The notes: generated from the sequence alone by a model not told the origin. Shown: positions 37,233 through 64,000, numbered from the stretch's first letter. The stretch: DNA of 64,000 nt from an uncultured Candidatus Saccharibacteria bacterium (GCA_964387175.1 CAYLVJ010000001.1:602-64601); one strand, 5' to 3'. Numbers and translations are program-made.

Positions 37233-37244
37233 AAAATTAAGTTG

Positions 37245-37591
37245 TGGAGATGGGGAGATTGAACTCCCGTCCAAAACTTCCGCGAGCGTGTTTCTACAAG
37301 CTTAGTCCATTTGTTTTTTTCAAGAAACCGAGTAGTAAATGGACAAAATCTTCGATTTCTTTATCCCTTTTGTTTCGAAAGACTTGTTGGGAAGACAAAC
37401 CTTTCTATCTCAATATATGATACCGGATCTTGACTATTGAGAATCGTCAAGGCGGCACTACCCTTAAGCGTAAGCTAGGGCAGGTTCGAAATCAAAGTTG
37501 GCATTTGTTTGCCTTCCAGGTTTTTGATCAGTTTCCTGGGAACTGAGCTTGCGGCATTCTCACAATAAGTTTTGTCGATGCATGCATCCCC
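37245..37591 (-). ncRNA. ssrA: tmRNA (ssrA), tag peptide ANFDFEPALAYA
   Basis: 5' GGGGATG pairs with 3' CATCTCC+A giving G3:U70; T-arm-like GGGAGTTCAATCTCCCC; in-frame GCC AAC TTT GAT TTC GAA CCT GCC CTA GCT TAC GCT TAA at 37464-37502 (- strand); adjacent smpB. Confidence 0.8.
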
Positions 37592-46307: not shown

Positions 46308-46481
46308 ATGAGTGGAATAGTTATTCTTTTGCTGGGAATTTTTTTGGTGCTTATTGTTTTTTTTCTTAGGTCTCAGGGGGCGAGCCTTATTGATGCTATA
46401 ACAATAGTGCTTTTTTACATCTTTTTAATCTGGTTTTTATTGACTCAGTTTCCACTTTCTGAAGGAACAAGTTTTTTTTGA
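46308..46481 (+). CDS. hypothetical 57-aa membrane peptide (below ORF-track cutoff)
   Basis: ATG 46308, two TM helices, stop abuts next ATG. Confidence 0.3.
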   Translation: MSGIVILLLGIFLVLIVFFLRSQGASLIDAITIVLFYIFLIWFLLTQFPLSEGTSFF

Positions 46482-46482
46482 T

Positions 46483-47031
46483 ATGAAAAGCAAAAGATCA
46501 AAGATTTCTCTTTTTTTATCTTTGTTGGCATTTTCAGTCTCCGTCGGTTTAGGTTTTTTGTGGGGCGGGAGTGACGCAGCTCGGGAGATTCTTTTTATTG
46601 CCGACAGGCTTTTTTCCATGGTAGCCCCTATAGAGTCACTTAATCTTTTTCTTTTTCTACTGCTTTTAGATCTTTTACTTTTGGCTTTTTTTGTTCTTTC
46701 TTCTTTTCTTCTTTCTCTGCCTTCTCTTTTTTATCTTTCTTTTTACTCTTTTTTGACCGGGGCGGCAGTCCGGATTTCGGGAGTCAGTCCGGTTTTTTTC
46801 TTACTTTTCCCTTTTTCAATTTTTAAAATTCTTCCCTTAATCTTAGCTACTTTTTTCTGCCTGCAGTTTTCAGGAACTTTGGTTTTAGAAGTATTTTCGG
46901 ATCAATTTACTTTTCCTAAAAAAGAAGCAAAGGTTTTTTTGAAAAAAATTGTTTTGCTTTTTCTTCTTTTTGCCTTTTTTAATTTTCTTGAAGTTTGGGG
47001 AGTTTCTTTTGTCTTTCGTTTTTTCACTTGA
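46483..47031 (+). CDS. hypothetical polytopic membrane protein
   Basis: 182 aa, 5 TM. Confidence 0.5.
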   Translation: MKSKRSKISLFLSLLAFSVSVGLGFLWGGSDAAREILFIADRLFSMVAPIESLNLFLFLLLLDLLLLAFFVLSSFLLSLPSLFYLSFYSFLTGAAVRISGVSPVFFLLFPFSIFKILPLILATFFCLQFSGTLVLEVFSDQFTFPKKEAKVFLKKIVLLFLLFAFFNFLEVWGVSFVFRFFT

Positions 47032-47195
47032 CAAAAAACTTTATTTTTTTAAAATGAGGGAAATAAAGGTTTTATGGATTCAAGATTAATTACAATTCAA
47101 CTCCTTCTTGTCACACGGTTTATTGACCTTGTGCCTTTTGGAGGGTTGAAAAGTAATCTTGAGTTAAGCTGACGAAAAATATTCGAGAAAACCTT

Positions 47196-47229
47196 TCAGC
47201 CCTTCCATCGGAGGGGCTGATTTGTTTTT
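47196..47229 (+). promoter_or_regulatory. leader hairpin + U-tract of cassette 1 (TCAGCCCTTCC-ATC-GGAGGGGCTGA TTTGTTTTT)
   Basis: 11-bp stem followed by T-tract, 30 nt upstream of AAAGGAGGTGAGA and ORF; duplicated at 47576-47610. Confidence 0.5.
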
Positions 47230-47260
47230 AGTTCTTTAGACTTCAAAGGAGGTGAGACAC

Positions 47261-47386
47261 ATGAGTGGGCTCAGGGAAAAAATTGTTTGTCCCGACTGTG
47301 AGCACGTTTATTGTGGCGACGTCTGTCCGCAATGCGGGCAGACAAAGGAGGAGGCGGCCCGAGCGGCTGCCAAGAAGGGGAGTTGA
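47261..47386 (+). CDS. 41-aa zinc-ribbon peptide (MSGLREKIVCPDCEHVYCGDVCPQCGQTKEEAARAAAKKGS)
   Basis: Strong RBS-like 13-mer, high GC, own GC-rich terminator 47388-47440. Confidence 0.5.
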   Translation: MSGLREKIVCPDCEHVYCGDVCPQCGQTKEEAARAAAKKGS

Positions 47387-47575
47387 ACTTACCCCCTTAA
47401 GGGGCGGAAAAGATTCGTCTTTTCCGCCCAAACCAATCTAAAAATGAACTTGTTTGAAATAAAAAAATTAGTTAACTTTTTCTTCGCCCTTCTTATCGAA
47501 GGTCTTTTTACCGGTTTTTGCCCGGGAGGGTTGAAGAATGATTTTTAAATAAATGAAACAACTTAAGGTTATTCT

Positions 47576-47610
47576 TCAGCCCTTCCATCGGAGGGGTTGA
47601 TTTGTTTTTT
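47576..47610 (+). promoter_or_regulatory. leader hairpin + U-tract of cassette 2
   Basis: TCAGCCCTTCCATCGGAGGGGTTGA TTTGTTTTTT, 1 substitution vs copy 1. Confidence 0.5.
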
Positions 47611-47644
47611 AGCTCTTTCAAGTTTTCAAAGGAGGTGAGAAAAA

Positions 47645-47746
47645 ATGTTCAAACTCATGGTGCCTAAAAAGAAAAAGGCGAAGAAAAAGGAAAAAAATTC
47701 CAAGAAGTCTTCTCCTACGCCCAAGGGAGTCAACATTTCTCCTTAG
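47645..47746 (+). CDS. 33-aa lysine-rich peptide (MFKLMVPKKKKAKKKEKNSKKSSPTPKGVNISP)
   Basis: same 13-mer upstream, own terminator AAGGGGGTAAGTTACTCCCCCTTCTTTTTT. Confidence 0.4.
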   Translation: MFKLMVPKKKKAKKKEKNSKKSSPTPKGVNISP

Positions 47747-47833
47747 GAAAGCTCTTTCGCTAGAAGGGGGTAAGTTACTCCCCCTTCTTTTTTATTTAAT
47801 GATTTTTTTGGTAAAATTAGACAGAGTGAAAAA

Positions 47834-48985
47834 ATGAAGTTGTTTAAAAAAATATTCAAAAACAAAAAGTGGAAAGCGGTTGCTACCTTGGTGGGGACAA
47901 CTATAGGGGCCGGGATGTTCGGCCTTCCTTATGTTGTAGTCAAGGTTGGTTTTCCGTTAGGTTTTCTTTACCTTCTTTTTTTAGGAGGAGTTGTTTTATT
48001 TTTAAACCTTGCTTACGGAGAGGTGATACTTAGAACGCCGGGGGATCATCAGTTCAGCGGTTATTTAAACTTTTATTTAAAACCAAAGGAGCATATTTTA
48101 CGTTTTGCCGAGCTGGTCAGCTTTTTCATCTCTGCTTATGGAGCTCTTCTTGCTTATCTGGTTAAGGTGGGTGATTTTTCCGTTCTTCTTTTGGGAAGAA
48201 AAGGGCCTGATTTTTACAGCCTGTTGTTTTTTGGCTTAGCAACTATTGCTCTTTATTTCGGATTGCGGTGGGTTTCCTTCTTTGACTTTGTGGCGGTTTT
48301 TTTAATCTTTTTAGTTTTGGGAGGTCTTTTTCTTTTTAATTTTTCACACATTAATCCTGAGATTTTAAGAAAGGTTGATTTCAGTTTTTTCTTTTTACCC
48401 TACGGCGTTATTTTGTTTGCTTTAAATGGAAGTTCAGTTATTCCCGAAATGGAAGAGGTTTTAAGAAAAGAACACGGGAAATTAAAAAATGCCGTAGTGA
48501 TAGGTACGTTAATTCCTCTTGTCGTTTATTTTATCTTCGTGAGCTTGGTGGGAGGGATTTGCGGAGAAAGTGTTTCTCCCGACTCCGTTTCTTGTTTACC
48601 TGGCATTCTTCCTTCTTGGGCGGTGGGGTTGACTGCTTTTTTGGGAATTTTAACCATGAGTAGTTCTTTTGTAAGCTTTGCTTATGTTCTAAGGGAGCGT
48701 TGGTATCGGGATTACAAATTCCCCAAATTTTGGTCTTTCGTTTTGGTTCTTTTCCCCCCTCTTCTTCTTTTCTTCTTGGGGGTTAGAGATTTTTTAGGGA
48801 TAATAGAGTTCAGCGGGGCTCTTTCAATCGGGTTGATCGGAATTCTTATTCTTCTTATGCACAAAAGAGCCAAGTCACGGGGCAAAAGGGAGCCGGCTTA
48901 CAACCTGAAAATTCCTTTGAAGGTTCGTTGGCTGCTTATTTTTATTTTTATAAGCGGGGCGGTTCTTTCTTTAATTTTTAATTAA
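47834..48985 (+). CDS. amino-acid permease family transporter
   Basis: 11 TM, N-terminal GTTIGAGMFGLP motif. Confidence 0.65.
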   Translation: MKLFKKIFKNKKWKAVATLVGTTIGAGMFGLPYVVVKVGFPLGFLYLLFLGGVVLFLNLAYGEVILRTPGDHQFSGYLNFYLKPKEHILRFAELVSFFISAYGALLAYLVKVGDFSVLLLGRKGPDFYSLLFFGLATIALYFGLRWVSFFDFVAVFLIFLVLGGLFLFNFSHINPEILRKVDFSFFFLPYGVILFALNGSSVIPEMEEVLRKEHGKLKNAVVIGTLIPLVVYFIFVSLVGGICGESVSPDSVSCLPGILPSWAVGLTAFLGILTMSSSFVSFAYVLRERWYRDYKFPKFWSFVLVLFPPLLLFFLGVRDFLGIIEFSGALSIGLIGILILLMHKRAKSRGKREPAYNLKIPLKVRWLLIFIFISGAVLSLIFN

Positions 48986-60617: not shown

Positions 60618-62104
<1,487 letters not shown>

Positions 62105-62220
62105 TCGATGTTGTCGACTAAGATTGATAGCTGAAATTTGGCTATTAATCTTAAAGGTATTGGTCTCGAGGCCTCTAAACCGAGACACCTGGTTTGAAGC
62201 AACTCAAAGGGTCCAAGAGT

Positions 62221-62246
62221 AAAAAAGGCCGAAATGGCCTTTTTTG
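62221..62246 (+). terminator. terminator-like hairpin after 16S (AAAAAAGGCCGAAATGGCCTTTTTTG)
   Basis: GC stem + T-tract. Confidence 0.5.
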
Positions 62247-62288
62247 TTTGAGAAAAGTTAGTTTTTGTTTTAAGATATAAGAAGATTA

Positions 62289-62365
62289 GGGTGTGTAGCT
62301 CAGTTGGCTAGAGCACGTCTCTGATAAAGACGAGGTCCGTGGTTCGAGTCCACGCACACCCACCA
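62289..62365 (+). tRNA. tRNA-Ile (GAU), CCA encoded
   Basis: acceptor GGGTGTG/CACACCC, anticodon loop CTGATAA. Confidence 0.85.
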
Positions 62366-62368
62366 TTT

Positions 62369-62440
62369 GGGCCGTTAGCTCAATGGCAGAGCACCTCGTT
62401 TGCATCGAGGAGGTTACCAGTTCAAGTCTGGTACGGTCCA
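62369..62440 (+). tRNA. tRNA-Ala (UGC), G3:U70
   Basis: acceptor GGGCCGT/ACGGTCC with G3:U70, anticodon loop TTTGCAT. Confidence 0.85.
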
Positions 62441-62496
62441 CACTACTTTCCCATCTAAAAAGGTCTTTAATAATAAATTTACAATTAATTTATAAC

Positions 62497-63210
62497 ATGA
62501 ATGACAAATTACTTTTAGAAGTAGGAGGTAATCTTCCGGAAAGTTGGCAAAGCGCTTTAAGCCCTCGGCCTTTTACAGTGGCTTTTCAAAGAATGATTGG
62601 GTTTTTCCCTAATATTATTGGGTCGATTATTCTTCTAGTGCTCGGTTGGCTGGTGGCCAACGGTATTGGAAAGTTAGTTAGTGAACTTTTGAAAGCTTCT
62701 GGGTTTAACAAATTATTTGAAAAATCCGGGTGGCAGGAAGCTTTAAAAAGAGCGGAGGTGGAGGTGGATGTTTCTCAATTTTTGGGAGCGGTTTGCAAGT
62801 GGGTTCTTTTCTTTGTTTTTCTGGCGATAGGGGTTGAAGTTTTAGGACTCAGTCAGTTTGCTGGATTCTTAAATCAAGTTCTAGCTTATATCCCCAGCGT
62901 GATTGTTTCTGTTTTAATTTTTGTAGCAGCGGTTGTTATTTCCGATATCCTAGAGAAAATAGTGGTTGCTTCTTTGGAGAAAGCAAAACTGGGTTACACG
63001 AAACTAGCTGGACTTTTAGTTAGGTGGGCGATAATAGGGTTTTCTTTGCTGGCTATTCTGGTTCAGTTGGGTATTGCCAAAGAAATGGTACTTGTTCTGT
63101 TTAGAGGAGTAGTTGGTTTCTTTGTTATTTCCTTGGGTCTTGCTTTTGGCTTGGGAGGAAAAGAAATCGCCGGTGAAATCTTAAGAAAACTTCAGAGAAA
63201 ATTAAAATAA
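62497..63210 (+). CDS. membrane protein with conserved TM-helix repeats (mechanosensitive-channel-associated TM_helix-like), inside the rRNA spacer
   Basis: 237 aa from ATG 62497; 4-5 TM helices, repeated ~50-aa units; track ORF start 62383 overlaps tRNA-Ala so internal ATG chosen. Confidence 0.55.
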   Translation: MNDKLLLEVGGNLPESWQSALSPRPFTVAFQRMIGFFPNIIGSIILLVLGWLVANGIGKLVSELLKASGFNKLFEKSGWQEALKRAEVEVDVSQFLGAVCKWVLFFVFLAIGVEVLGLSQFAGFLNQVLAYIPSVIVSVLIFVAAVVISDILEKIVVASLEKAKLGYTKLAGLLVRWAIIGFSLLAILVQLGIAKEMVLVLFRGVVGFFVISLGLAFGLGGKEIAGEILRKLQRKLK

Positions 63211-63254
63211 TTTTAACTTAAAACTTTGAAACACTGTTTTTTTAACATTGTTTC

Positions 63255-63283
63255 TTGACACTTTTTTTTAATTAAGTTAAAAT
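63255..63283 (+). promoter_or_regulatory. promoter TTGACA-N17-TAAAAT upstream of 23S
   Basis: consensus -35 and good -10 ~180 nt before 23S 5' end. Confidence 0.45.
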
Positions 63284-63460
63284 CAAATTGACATGCAAAA
63301 AGTTTTAAACAAAGGAAGTGGCTAAAGCTCGCTTTATGGAGTGGGTTTTGGCTGCTTCCTTTGGAAGCAGCTTTTTAGTACTTTAAAAATTAAATAATGC
63401 AAGTAAATTTGAGAAGGTTGAGCTTGGTTTTGCCAAGCTTAACTTGACCAGGTCTAAAAA

Positions 63461-64000
<540 letters not shown>

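Follow-up and report, generated by a model that had tools for sequence, protein, structure and literature searches.

The locus considered here lies in a 64,000-nt stretch of DNA from an uncultured Candidatus Saccharibacteria bacterium, the whole of which is called the window below. In it, two head-to-tail units of about 380 nt each carry a common leader in front of unrelated small open reading frames (ORFs), and the question is what this leader does. The initial annotation of the locus had described two such tandem units, and all the elements that it listed were present. Its unit limits (47120-47440 and 47500-47800) needed adjustment, however; two units do lie there, and their natural boundaries are 47074-47443 and 47444-47833. 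The units share a 35-nt direct repeat at 47195-47229 and 47575-47609 (97% identity, spacing 380), a box GGAGGGTTGAA at 47140 and 47525 (spacing 385), and a 16-mer TTCAAAGGAGGTGAGA which is identical at 47242 and 47625. The 24-nt hairpin pattern occurred only twice within 64 kb with up to three mismatches allowed (0 expected), and no copy besides the two units was found in the window by pattern or by covariance model. As detailed below, each unit is probably a transcription attenuator of the ribosome-mediated (leader-peptide) kind with the four classical segments, a reading drawn from sequence comparison, with the signal and the function of the regulated small proteins inferred.

Both leaders, on the plus strand like all the features of the array, contain four mutually complementary segments. 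In unit 1, segment 1 (AUUCAACUCCUUCU, 47095-47108, codons I-Q-L-L-L) lies inside an upstream ORF (uORF) and is followed by segment 2, here called the A box (TGGAGGGTTGAAAAGT, 47139-47154), and by segment 3, the B arm (ACCTTTCAGCCCTTCC, 47191-47206). The B arm can be used by an antiterminator, together with A, or by a terminator, together with segment 4, the C arm. The leader terminator 1 (47196-47229) consists of an 11-bp hairpin TCAGCCCTTCC-ATC-GGAGGGGCTGA (47196-47220) and the adjoining TTTGTTTTT. Unit 2 repeats this order with a B-like segment 1 (UUCUUCGCCCUUCUU, 47480-47494, codons F-F-A-L-L), an A box (GGGAGGGTTGAAGAAT, 47524-47539) of 16 nt that is 88% complementary to 47571-47586, the B arm at those positions (ATTCTTCAGCCCTTCC), and leader terminator 2 (47576-47610), an 11-bp hairpin (47576-47600) followed by TTTGTTTTTT. 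In each unit segment 1 can pair with the A box as an anti-antiterminator. Across the copies, the consensus of segment 2 is GGAGGGUUGAAGAAU, that of segment 3 is AUUCUUCAGCCCUUCC, and segment 4 reads GGAGGGGYUGA followed by a U-tract. Segment 1 is a polypyrimidine stretch within the uORF whose codons specify Leu (CUY), Phe (UUY) and Ile (AUY), the in-frame peptides being IQLLL and FFALL in the window and FFILLI, IVYLLL, FLFILL and ILYILL elsewhere. The uORF, the antiterminator and the position of segment 1 inside the uORF had been missed in the initial annotation. What it had taken for a promoter-like box (TTGACC/TTTACC) has no -10 element at 16-18 nt, and is the 5' strand of the antiterminator inside the predicted uORF.

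The helices compete, and their predicted stabilities were compared. Both leader hairpins were terminator-like by terminator scoring, each sits between the promoter and the regulated ORF, and terminators were shown in other genomes too; the proposal of a terminator placed between promoter and ribosome-binding site and acting as an attenuator was thus supported. In unit 1 the terminator hairpin had -19.1 kcal/mol and the competing antiterminator -25.4 kcal/mol, and the corresponding values in unit 2 were -16.7 and -29.5 kcal/mol. The alternative A:B hairpin in the window folds comprised 16-25 bp with -25 to -30 kcal/mol (z = -3.2 to -5.1). The same ranking was seen in all of the 11 units first analysed, where A:B (-20 to -30 kcal/mol) was more stable than the B:C terminator (-10 to -19 kcal/mol). 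For the pairing of segment 1 with the A core, -13.6 kcal/mol was obtained in unit 1 (5 of 300 shuffles were as good) and -16.7 kcal/mol in unit 2 (0 of 300); with a longer A strand, the unit 1 value became -25.1 kcal/mol (0 of 200 shuffles). This 1:2 pairing beat the shuffled controls in most units, in which it was reached by 0-6 of 200-300 shuffles. Furthermore, the minimum free energy structure of the full leader in window unit 1, and in the second unit of the related genome L010, was the 1:2 pairing plus the terminator.

Two other readings of the hairpin did not hold. It had been thought to sequester a ribosome-binding site, but its GGAGG is not the Shine-Dalgarno (SD) sequence of the downstream gene, which lies about 25 nt further on and is unpaired in both states. 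As for a riboswitch-like platform, nothing aptamer-like was seen; the A-B apical region is A/U-rich, 19-50 nt long and unconserved, and no Rfam family matched at threshold.

Related genomes were reached through homologues of the permease gene that follows the array. A genome scan gave two metagenome-assembled genomes (MAGs) labelled uncultured Candidatus Saccharibacteria (L002 and L003), and further contexts were taken via permease homologues at 50-55% identity. L002, whose permease is 92% identical, has the same two units. L003 (permease 55% identical) has three units with small ORFs unrelated to those of the window, L010 has two, L015 has one, and L008 has one full and one degenerate unit, while no unit was found near the permease in L009, L011 and L013. 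A covariance model built from 11 copies found all 11 again at 63-97 bits. It added five new full copies scoring 53-70 bits (two each in L014 and L016 and one in L003), a weaker opposite-strand copy in L012 at 34 bits and a partial copy in L016. The initial annotation had suggested looking for the leader in genomes of the candidate phyla radiation (CPR, Patescibacteria), and the leader does recur there: the total came to 17 full copies and one partial copy in 9 related CPR metagenome genomes, 1-3 per genome. All copies are in one neighbourhood, made up of GlyRS, membrane proteins, the leaders, the permease, a metallophosphoesterase and RtcA. Among these copies the regulated small ORF (hereafter the cargo) varies and is shuffled, and the leader is kept.

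If the leader acts through two mutually exclusive helices, both should covary. A block alignment of the A, B and C segments was made from the 17 copies, which give 16 distinct rows; its register was set from the sequence, and two indels were documented. In the antiterminator A:B, 91.0% of the cells were paired and 11 of 16 pairs had changed on both sides, a result reached by none of 500 shuffles; controls in which the strands were slid by 1-3 columns gave 44-62% paired. In the terminator B:C, 85.7% of the cells were paired, 7 of 11 pairs had changed on both sides, 2 of 500 shuffles reached this result, and the slid controls gave 41-65%. The covariation of the hairpin, which had been proposed as a check, was therefore found. 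Moreover, some changes involve all three segments at once, such as GGGAGGG / CCCTTCC / GGAGGGG for A/B/C in the window and GAGAGGA / TCCTCTC / GAGAGGA in L015, and at the UUGAAG position the second unit of L014 is altered jointly in segment 1, A, B and C. The suggestion that the conserved RNA leader, and not the peptide behind it, is the selected unit was borne out, the leader recurring before unrelated small ORFs in relatives and covarying.

A uORF starting with ATG was found in 16 of the 17 copies, ending in or at the A box or in the A-B apical region. In the window, uORF1 (47074-47172) encodes a leader peptide of 32 amino acids (aa), MDSRLITIQLLLVTRFIDLVPFGGLKSNLELS, crosses the A box and has its stop in the apical part of the antiterminator; uORF2 (47444-47548) encodes 34 aa, MNLFEIKKLVNFFFALLIEGLFTGFCPGGLKNDF. 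Among the copies the length of the uORF is typically 30-50 codons and ranges from 6 to 51. Relative to the start of the A box, the stop codon is at -2 to +54 nt, and it precedes the 5' arm of the terminator by 19-46 nt, so that a terminating ribosome would block the 2:3 pairing and not the 3:4 pairing. Segment 1 ends 23-49 nt before the A box; a ribosome stalled on segment 1 would thus leave A free. The uORF frame stayed open in 2-12% of composition-matched shuffles per long copy (12% for uORF1), and the other two frames of the uORFs contained 53 and 39 stops in 478 codons.

The start of the uORF is likewise at a fixed place. The array promoter of the window (TTGACA-16-TAAAAT, 47028-47055, 11/12 match) is the sole promoter-like site in 46400-48400, and the end of its -10 hexamer is 18 nt from the ATG of uORF1. 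This promoter and its spacing of 17-20 nt to the uORF ATG recur in L002, L003, L008, L010 and L015, and in all 8 units with a promoter of their own (10-12 of 12 matches) the ATG follows the -10 hexamer by 17-20 nt. No promoter was found ahead of uORF2, where the best match was 6/12.

With these elements, the following course of events is envisaged. Transcription would start about 10-13 nt 5' of the 30-50-codon uORF, and the nascent RNA could form the pairings 1:2 (anti-antiterminator), 2:3 (antiterminator) and 3:4 (terminator). With ample charged tRNA, the ribosome would pass segments 1 and 2 and sit at the stop codon in the 2-3 apical region, where it would block 2:3; the terminator 3:4 would then form, and RNA polymerase would terminate at the U-tract, about 150 nt into the transcript. 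If the ribosome were stalled on the Leu/Phe/Ile codons of segment 1, segment 2 would be free, 2:3 would form, the terminator could not, and the polymerase would enter the small protein gene with its strong SD. In the window, the polymerase would then continue past a hairpin without a U-tract into the second, promoter-less attenuator unit. What this scheme starts from, namely the four complementary segments, the covariation of 2:3 and 3:4, the maintained uORF, the promoter spacing and the conservation across genomes with different cargo, is established here; from it we infer that the position of the ribosome decides the fold, that the charging of Leu/Phe/Ile tRNA is the signal, and what the cargo might do.

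Several observations weigh against this reading. The regulated genes are not genes of amino-acid metabolism or transport; regulated genes of that kind are typical of attenuators and not mechanistically required. A strong terminator separates the array from the permease. The start codons of the uORFs have no SD, whereas the cargo ORFs carry a perfect AAAGGAGGTGA; the permease, however, likewise lacks a good SD, its start codon being 17 nt 3' of its -10, and starts of this kind may thus be normal in this genome. The 1:2 pairing was not significant in the first units of L008, L014 and L016 or in L012, and in the first unit of L010 it was significant against the A core only (6 of 300 shuffles) and not with the longer A strand (92 of 200). 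The U-tract is weak or absent in the second unit of L008 and in L015 and L012. The pairs were counted in a hand-registered alignment whose rows include close relatives (window/L002, L014/L016), and the shuffle control ignores phylogeny. All the genomes are uncultured MAGs or contigs, and the uORF frameshifts described below could in principle be assembly errors. Finally, Ile, Leu and Phe make up 42% of the uORF peptides, compared with 36-46% in local membrane proteins, no one amino acid prevails, and Leu is most often encoded by CUU in the genome, which makes the codon-usage argument uninformative. The codon enrichment is therefore inseparable from a generic transmembrane (TM)-like, T-rich sequence, and an amino-acid specificity is not established.

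The explanation nearest to ours keeps the uORF and terminator/antiterminator hardware and takes general translation stress as the signal, so that a ribosome slowed on the uORF for whatever reason would turn on the small proteins. Candidate triggers are antibiotics that target the ribosome and come from a host or neighbour, or a general lack of amino acids or energy. We consider it unlikely, with some points in its favour. Firmicutes are known to have ribosome-mediated attenuators that carry short uORFs and respond to antibiotics, the cargo here does not consist of amino-acid genes, and the uORFs vary widely in length and sequence, are generically hydrophobic and have no clean single-codon run. 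Set against this, segment 1 repeatedly coincides with consecutive in-frame CUY/UUY/AUY codons, and the cargo is depleted in Leu, Phe and Ile (13% for the three together, compared with 23% in a proteome proxy). Neither point is decisive. The low content of these residues would fit a synthesis of the cargo during their shortage, and is no proof of it.

The uORF peptides look like a single TM helix with a basic tail, and this raises the alternative that the peptide itself is the sensor, either as a membrane-inserted or arrest peptide of the MifM/SecM/VemP kind or as a ligand-dependent staller like TnaC, and sets the RNA fold. Four of the peptides (second units of L003 and L010, L015 and first unit of L008) share an N-terminal N-L-S-F motif written in different synonymous codons, four synonymous and three non-synonymous changes separate the first 24 codons of uORF2 from those of L002, and the neighbouring gene is a transporter of the Trp/Tyr-permease family, all of which would suit a sensing peptide. 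The remainder of the comparison argues otherwise. The apparent GGLKN motif of the peptides coincides with the A box of the RNA, and it is lost by frameshift in the second unit of L002 and the first unit of L014, where the element is intact. In the former, a 2-nt indel in the orthologue of uORF2 shifts the frame to R-E-G-stop, with a TGA within the A box; in the latter the box is read as W-R-V-E-E, whereas the first unit of L016, a close relative, reads GGLK across it, as do most copies. Two uORFs, of 6 and 21 codons, end before the box, at its 5' edge. By codon position (1, 2, 3), the differences between the window and L002 numbered 4, 2 and 2 in uORF1, without any third-position bias and so without a constraint at the peptide level, compared with 26, 8 and 91 in the permease. 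A profile search with the uORF peptides gave only self or near-self matches and no wider family. The A box is hence conserved, on this comparison, as RNA and not as peptide. An open frame and an end point that are kept, a peptide that is barely constrained and a box that is kept as RNA are the character of a leader peptide, and a sensing peptide appears improbable. A function of their own for the TM-like leader peptides is a possibility.

The prominence of the A box could also be explained by a trans-acting factor that picks the helix, with the uORF incidental: a protein of the TRAP/PyrR type, possibly the cargo in a feedback role, or a small RNA (sRNA) or tRNA bound to the A box or to the apical region. 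The A box is indeed the most conserved element of the leader, zinc-ribbon and basic small proteins could bind RNA, and, since the antiterminator is intrinsically more stable than the terminator, A must be blocked by something. A feedback specific to the cargo is unlikely, however, because the cargo differs between copies and the leader is the same. Moreover, the apical region is variable and of low complexity, no T-box or riboswitch match was found, and such a factor would not explain why the uORF is maintained and kept at a fixed distance from the promoter. A factor of this sort is, in our judgement, not a probable answer.

That the uORFs are themselves the genes, encoding small hydrophobic proteins such as type I toxins or membrane peptides and ending in terminators of their own, with the cargo expressed by leaky read-through, appears very improbable. 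Peptides of 30-51 aa with TM-like helices and basic tails, encoded in tandem copies like many type I toxins, would be in keeping with it, and some of the uORFs are annotated by gene callers. Yet no minus-strand promoter-like site for an antitoxin RNA was found in 46400-48400 (a weak test), the peptide is barely constrained and its C-terminal frame varies, the truncated copies of 6-21 codons keep the RNA switch intact, and the cargo ORFs have no promoter of their own; a plain terminator would need neither the A:B / B:C competition nor the covariation of A. The last alternative takes the repeats for a mobile element or one that serves recombination, such as integron-like attC cassettes or a MITE, or else for a recent functionless duplication. 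It would account for an imperfect palindrome that is conserved and has a variable small ORF without a promoter behind it, and for unit numbers (1-3) and cargo that differ between related genomes, but is barely credible in view of a single syntenic site without another copy in the 64-kb window or in about 90 kb of related loci elsewhere, of neighbouring genes that include no integrase or transposase, and of a GTTGAAG...CTTCAGC order that misfits the attC R''(RYYYAAC)/R'(GTTRRRY) cores. The element has outlasted a divergence of the permease to 51-55% identity and shows compensatory changes; it is therefore neither recent nor neutral, and a recent non-functional duplication, which the initial annotation had kept in view, is ruled out.

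The leader-peptide attenuator was then compared with known systems. In an Rfam scan of the 3-kb region at E <= 10 only sub-threshold chance matches were obtained, the best being Phe_leader (RF01859), whose 18.8 bits (E = 8.5) compare with a gathering score of 55, and no other leader family appeared at E <= 10; in the whole window at gathering thresholds there was no leader or riboswitch match. The element is thus a member of no curated Rfam family, and a full-text literature search gave no paper combining leader peptide, attenuation and Patescibacteria. Nevertheless, it resembles the trpL, leuL, pheL, ilvL/ivbL, hisL and thrL attenuators in its short leader ORF near the 5' end, its four complementary segments, its U-tract terminator and its runs of codons for hydrophobic amino acids in segment 1. 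The ilvL leader peptide is also hydrophobic and about 30 aa long. The Phe, Leu, His, Thr and Trp leaders of Rfam are alike in concept, having a uORF rich in Leu/Phe codons 5' of a terminator, and the 'Leu/phe leader' motif of Lactococcus follows the same concept. Classical attenuators have been described in Actinobacteria (PMC1262725, PMC11857589), and pheL in PMC3082878. Compared with the classical systems, the sequences here are unrelated, the leader ORF has its stop codon past segment 2, in the 2:3 apical region, and not before or at that segment, small-protein genes are regulated in place of biosynthetic, aminoacyl-tRNA synthetase or transport genes, the units are in tandem (1-3), and the host belongs to the CPR.

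Other ribosome-dependent leaders share parts of the design. In the bmrCD / vmlR type of Bacillus, a ribosome positioned on a uORF selects between terminator and antiterminator, and the output is not an amino-acid pathway; resistance genes are under the control of these leaders, whose uORFs are usually very short. The leaders studied here differ from that type in their uORFs of 30-50 codons, the B-like segment 1 and the small-protein cargo. MifM, SecM, VemP and TnaC also place a hydrophobic or TM-like leader peptide 5' of an RNA switch and act on SD exposure or Rho, and the tna operon holds a permease of the same Pfam family as that of the window. The present leaders, in contrast, have no conserved fixed-frame arrest motif and rely on an intrinsic terminator/antiterminator pair. 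The initial annotation had also considered that an sRNA precedes each peptide gene; an attenuated transcript of about 150 nt is the expected by-product of attenuation, and a function of its own is a candidate only. In Sinorhizobium, the attenuated leader transcript rnTrpL and the leader peptide peTrpL also act in trans (PMC7298713; bioRxiv 10.1101/864512). Their sequences are unrelated to those described here, and such an action in trans is the only form in which the sRNA idea could hold. Tandem riboswitches resemble the array in placing two regulatory leaders in series on one transcript (PMC12452182). Here, by contrast, each leader has its own cargo ORF and no aptamer.

The cargo ORFs were examined for signs of being real genes. 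Each is preceded by the 16-mer given above, which comprises a conserved spacer and a strong SD (47242-47257 in unit 1, 47625-47640 in unit 2). Cargo ORF 1 (47261-47386) encodes a 41-aa Cys-rich, zinc-ribbon-like peptide (CPDC...CPQC) and cargo ORF 2 (47645-47746) a 33-aa Lys-rich peptide, the two unrelated ORFs that had been described. Between the window and L002, the differences by codon position were 4, 4 and 16 in the zinc-ribbon ORF (16 of 24 in third position) and 2, 1 and 10 in the Lys-rich ORF (10 of 13), which also has an in-frame indel. With a permease 92% identical between the two genomes, this third-position excess indicates that both cargo ORFs are real genes. Searches of the cargo proteins in Pfam, NCBIfam and PDB sequences gave nothing above threshold apart from a generic zinc-ribbon resemblance, and a homology search with the zinc-ribbon peptide gave only self or near-self matches. 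In an exact-sequence look-up, neither the zinc-ribbon peptide nor the permease was on record, and the Lys-rich peptide had one short near-identical Logan contig. Cargo ORF 1 is weakly related to the cargo of unit 1 in L010, and the zinc-ribbon and 'DRDEYV' cargo families occupy different slots among the copies. The local GC content, said to be high throughout, is raised over the zinc-ribbon ORF (0.53 at 47200-47399) but is 0.31-0.38 in the remainder of the region.

The arrangement of hairpins in the array points to a single transcript. Each unit had been credited with a strong terminator of its own, which applies to unit 2 and not to unit 1. Unit 2 is followed by a canonical intrinsic terminator that closes the array (47762-47794; AGAAGGGGG-loop-CCCCCTTCT, then TTTTTT). 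The hairpin after cargo ORF 1 (47402-47429) has a perfect 12-bp stem and no U-tract, with AAACCAATC directly 3' of it; its counterpart in L002 (9565-9592) carries a compensatory A>G / T>C change that preserves the stem. Transcription probably reads through this inter-unit hairpin into the promoter-less unit 2. Since in the window, L002, L003 and L014 the hairpin of the first cargo ORF lacks a U-tract and the next unit lacks a promoter, the units are probably chained on one transcript. L010 and L014 have similar hairpins, likewise U-less, 3' of their first cargo ORF, and hairpins of this kind may serve in RNA stability or processing. In addition, a 13-nt perfect inverted repeat, 47386-47398 (AACTTACCCCCTT) and 47764-47776 (AAGGGGGTAAGTT), has its first arm in the 3' flank of cargo ORF 1 and its second in the terminator that follows cargo ORF 2.

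The gene downstream of the array (47834-48985, plus strand) encodes an amino-acid transporter of the Trp/Tyr-permease family (PF03222 at 2.7e-18; TIGR00837 below the cut-off) and served as the synteny anchor. Control of this permease by the leaders was considered and is unlikely, in view of the strong terminator and of the permease's own extended -10 (TGGTAAAAT, 47809-47817) in the window, of a terminator that precedes the peptidase-permease pair in L014, and of the unit on the opposite strand in L012. The permease is therefore probably a separate transcription unit that is not under the leaders. Two minus-strand units, in L012 (2765-2853) and the partial one in L016 (1-85), are oriented opposite to the permease, and the L012 unit drives an 80-aa ORF; the leader thus travels with the small ORF and not with the permease. 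The start region of uORF2 (47440-47462, AAAAATGAACTTGTTTGAAATAA, MNLFEIKK) is 87% identical over 23 nt to the start of the permease (47830-47852, AAAAATGAAGTTGTTTAAAAAAA, MKLFKKIF), which could be a trace of unit duplication or a common initiation context.

CPR bacteria have tiny genomes and no amino-acid biosynthesis, and live off other cells. To our knowledge, almost no cis-regulatory RNAs have been described in them. If the units are classical attenuators, these bacteria would read their amino-acid or translation status via the coupling of transcription and translation, and the leader points to a set of small proteins that such stress would induce. As a mechanism this is textbook, and the surprise for specialists is moderate; the unusual traits are the CPR host, the tandem chaining, a small-protein cargo without a known family, and the shuffling of that cargo. 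The locus is also of use as a comparative example, in which both alternative helices covary in only 17 sequences and the leader stays constant while the cargo is exchanged. A further and more doubtful step, which we put forward tentatively, would be to regard the leader as a portable cassette, with one hotspot beside the permease that holds a variable number (1-3) of 'attenuator + small protein' modules, a shuffled cargo (zinc ribbons, Lys-rich peptides, 'DRDEYV' proteins and others), and a regulon of small proteins for starvation or translation stress. In that case the cargo might be, for example, ribosome-binding or host-interaction factors in organisms unable to make their own amino acids, and the system would be defined by the module and its exchangeable cargo, not by the attenuator alone. 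One metagenome scan with the pattern GAGGRTTKAARART-N(25-55)-YTTCRGCCCTY gave 4 matches, compared with about 8 estimated by chance, all within coding sequence and without a hairpin. The element is thus rare or too divergent in the scanned collection. As these matches are at the level of chance and the uORF peptides have no wider family, the element looks lineage-restricted.

Some further observations were made around the array in the related genomes. A small Cys-rich or zinc-ribbon ORF lies just 5' of the permease even where it has no leader, at 1954-2148 in L009, 2224-2397 in L015 and 1951-2061 in L008; the small ORF of L009 and the first small ORF of L015 have only a promoter and an SD. The small-protein slot may be older than, or independent of, the attenuator. 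In L010, a TTGACAG(A/G)AGGAAACTTTTTCTC-like box occurs as three direct repeats 5' of unit 1 (2780-2850), all of which contain a perfect -35 hexamer. A gene of 415 aa with an MJ0043_C domain is immediately 5' of the leader/small-ORF region in L009, L010, L012 and L015, and it directly follows a SpoIIM-like membrane gene in L010 and L015. The window has no MJ0043_C gene at 46483-47031, where a 182-aa membrane ORF (no Pfam match) abuts the array promoter.

Elsewhere in the window, an rRNA operon occupies 60619-64000, with the 16S gene at 60619-62104, tRNA-Ile(GAU), tRNA-Ala(UGC), a gap of about 1 kb and the 23S gene from 63463; a 275-aa ORF (62383-63210) overlaps the tRNA-Ala gene and this gap. 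A cluster of five tRNA genes was found on the minus strand at 312-1095, including a tRNA-Ile with the anticodon UAU (1019-1095). The tmRNA gene is also on the minus strand (37242-37591), and its tag peptide is ANFDFEPALAYA.

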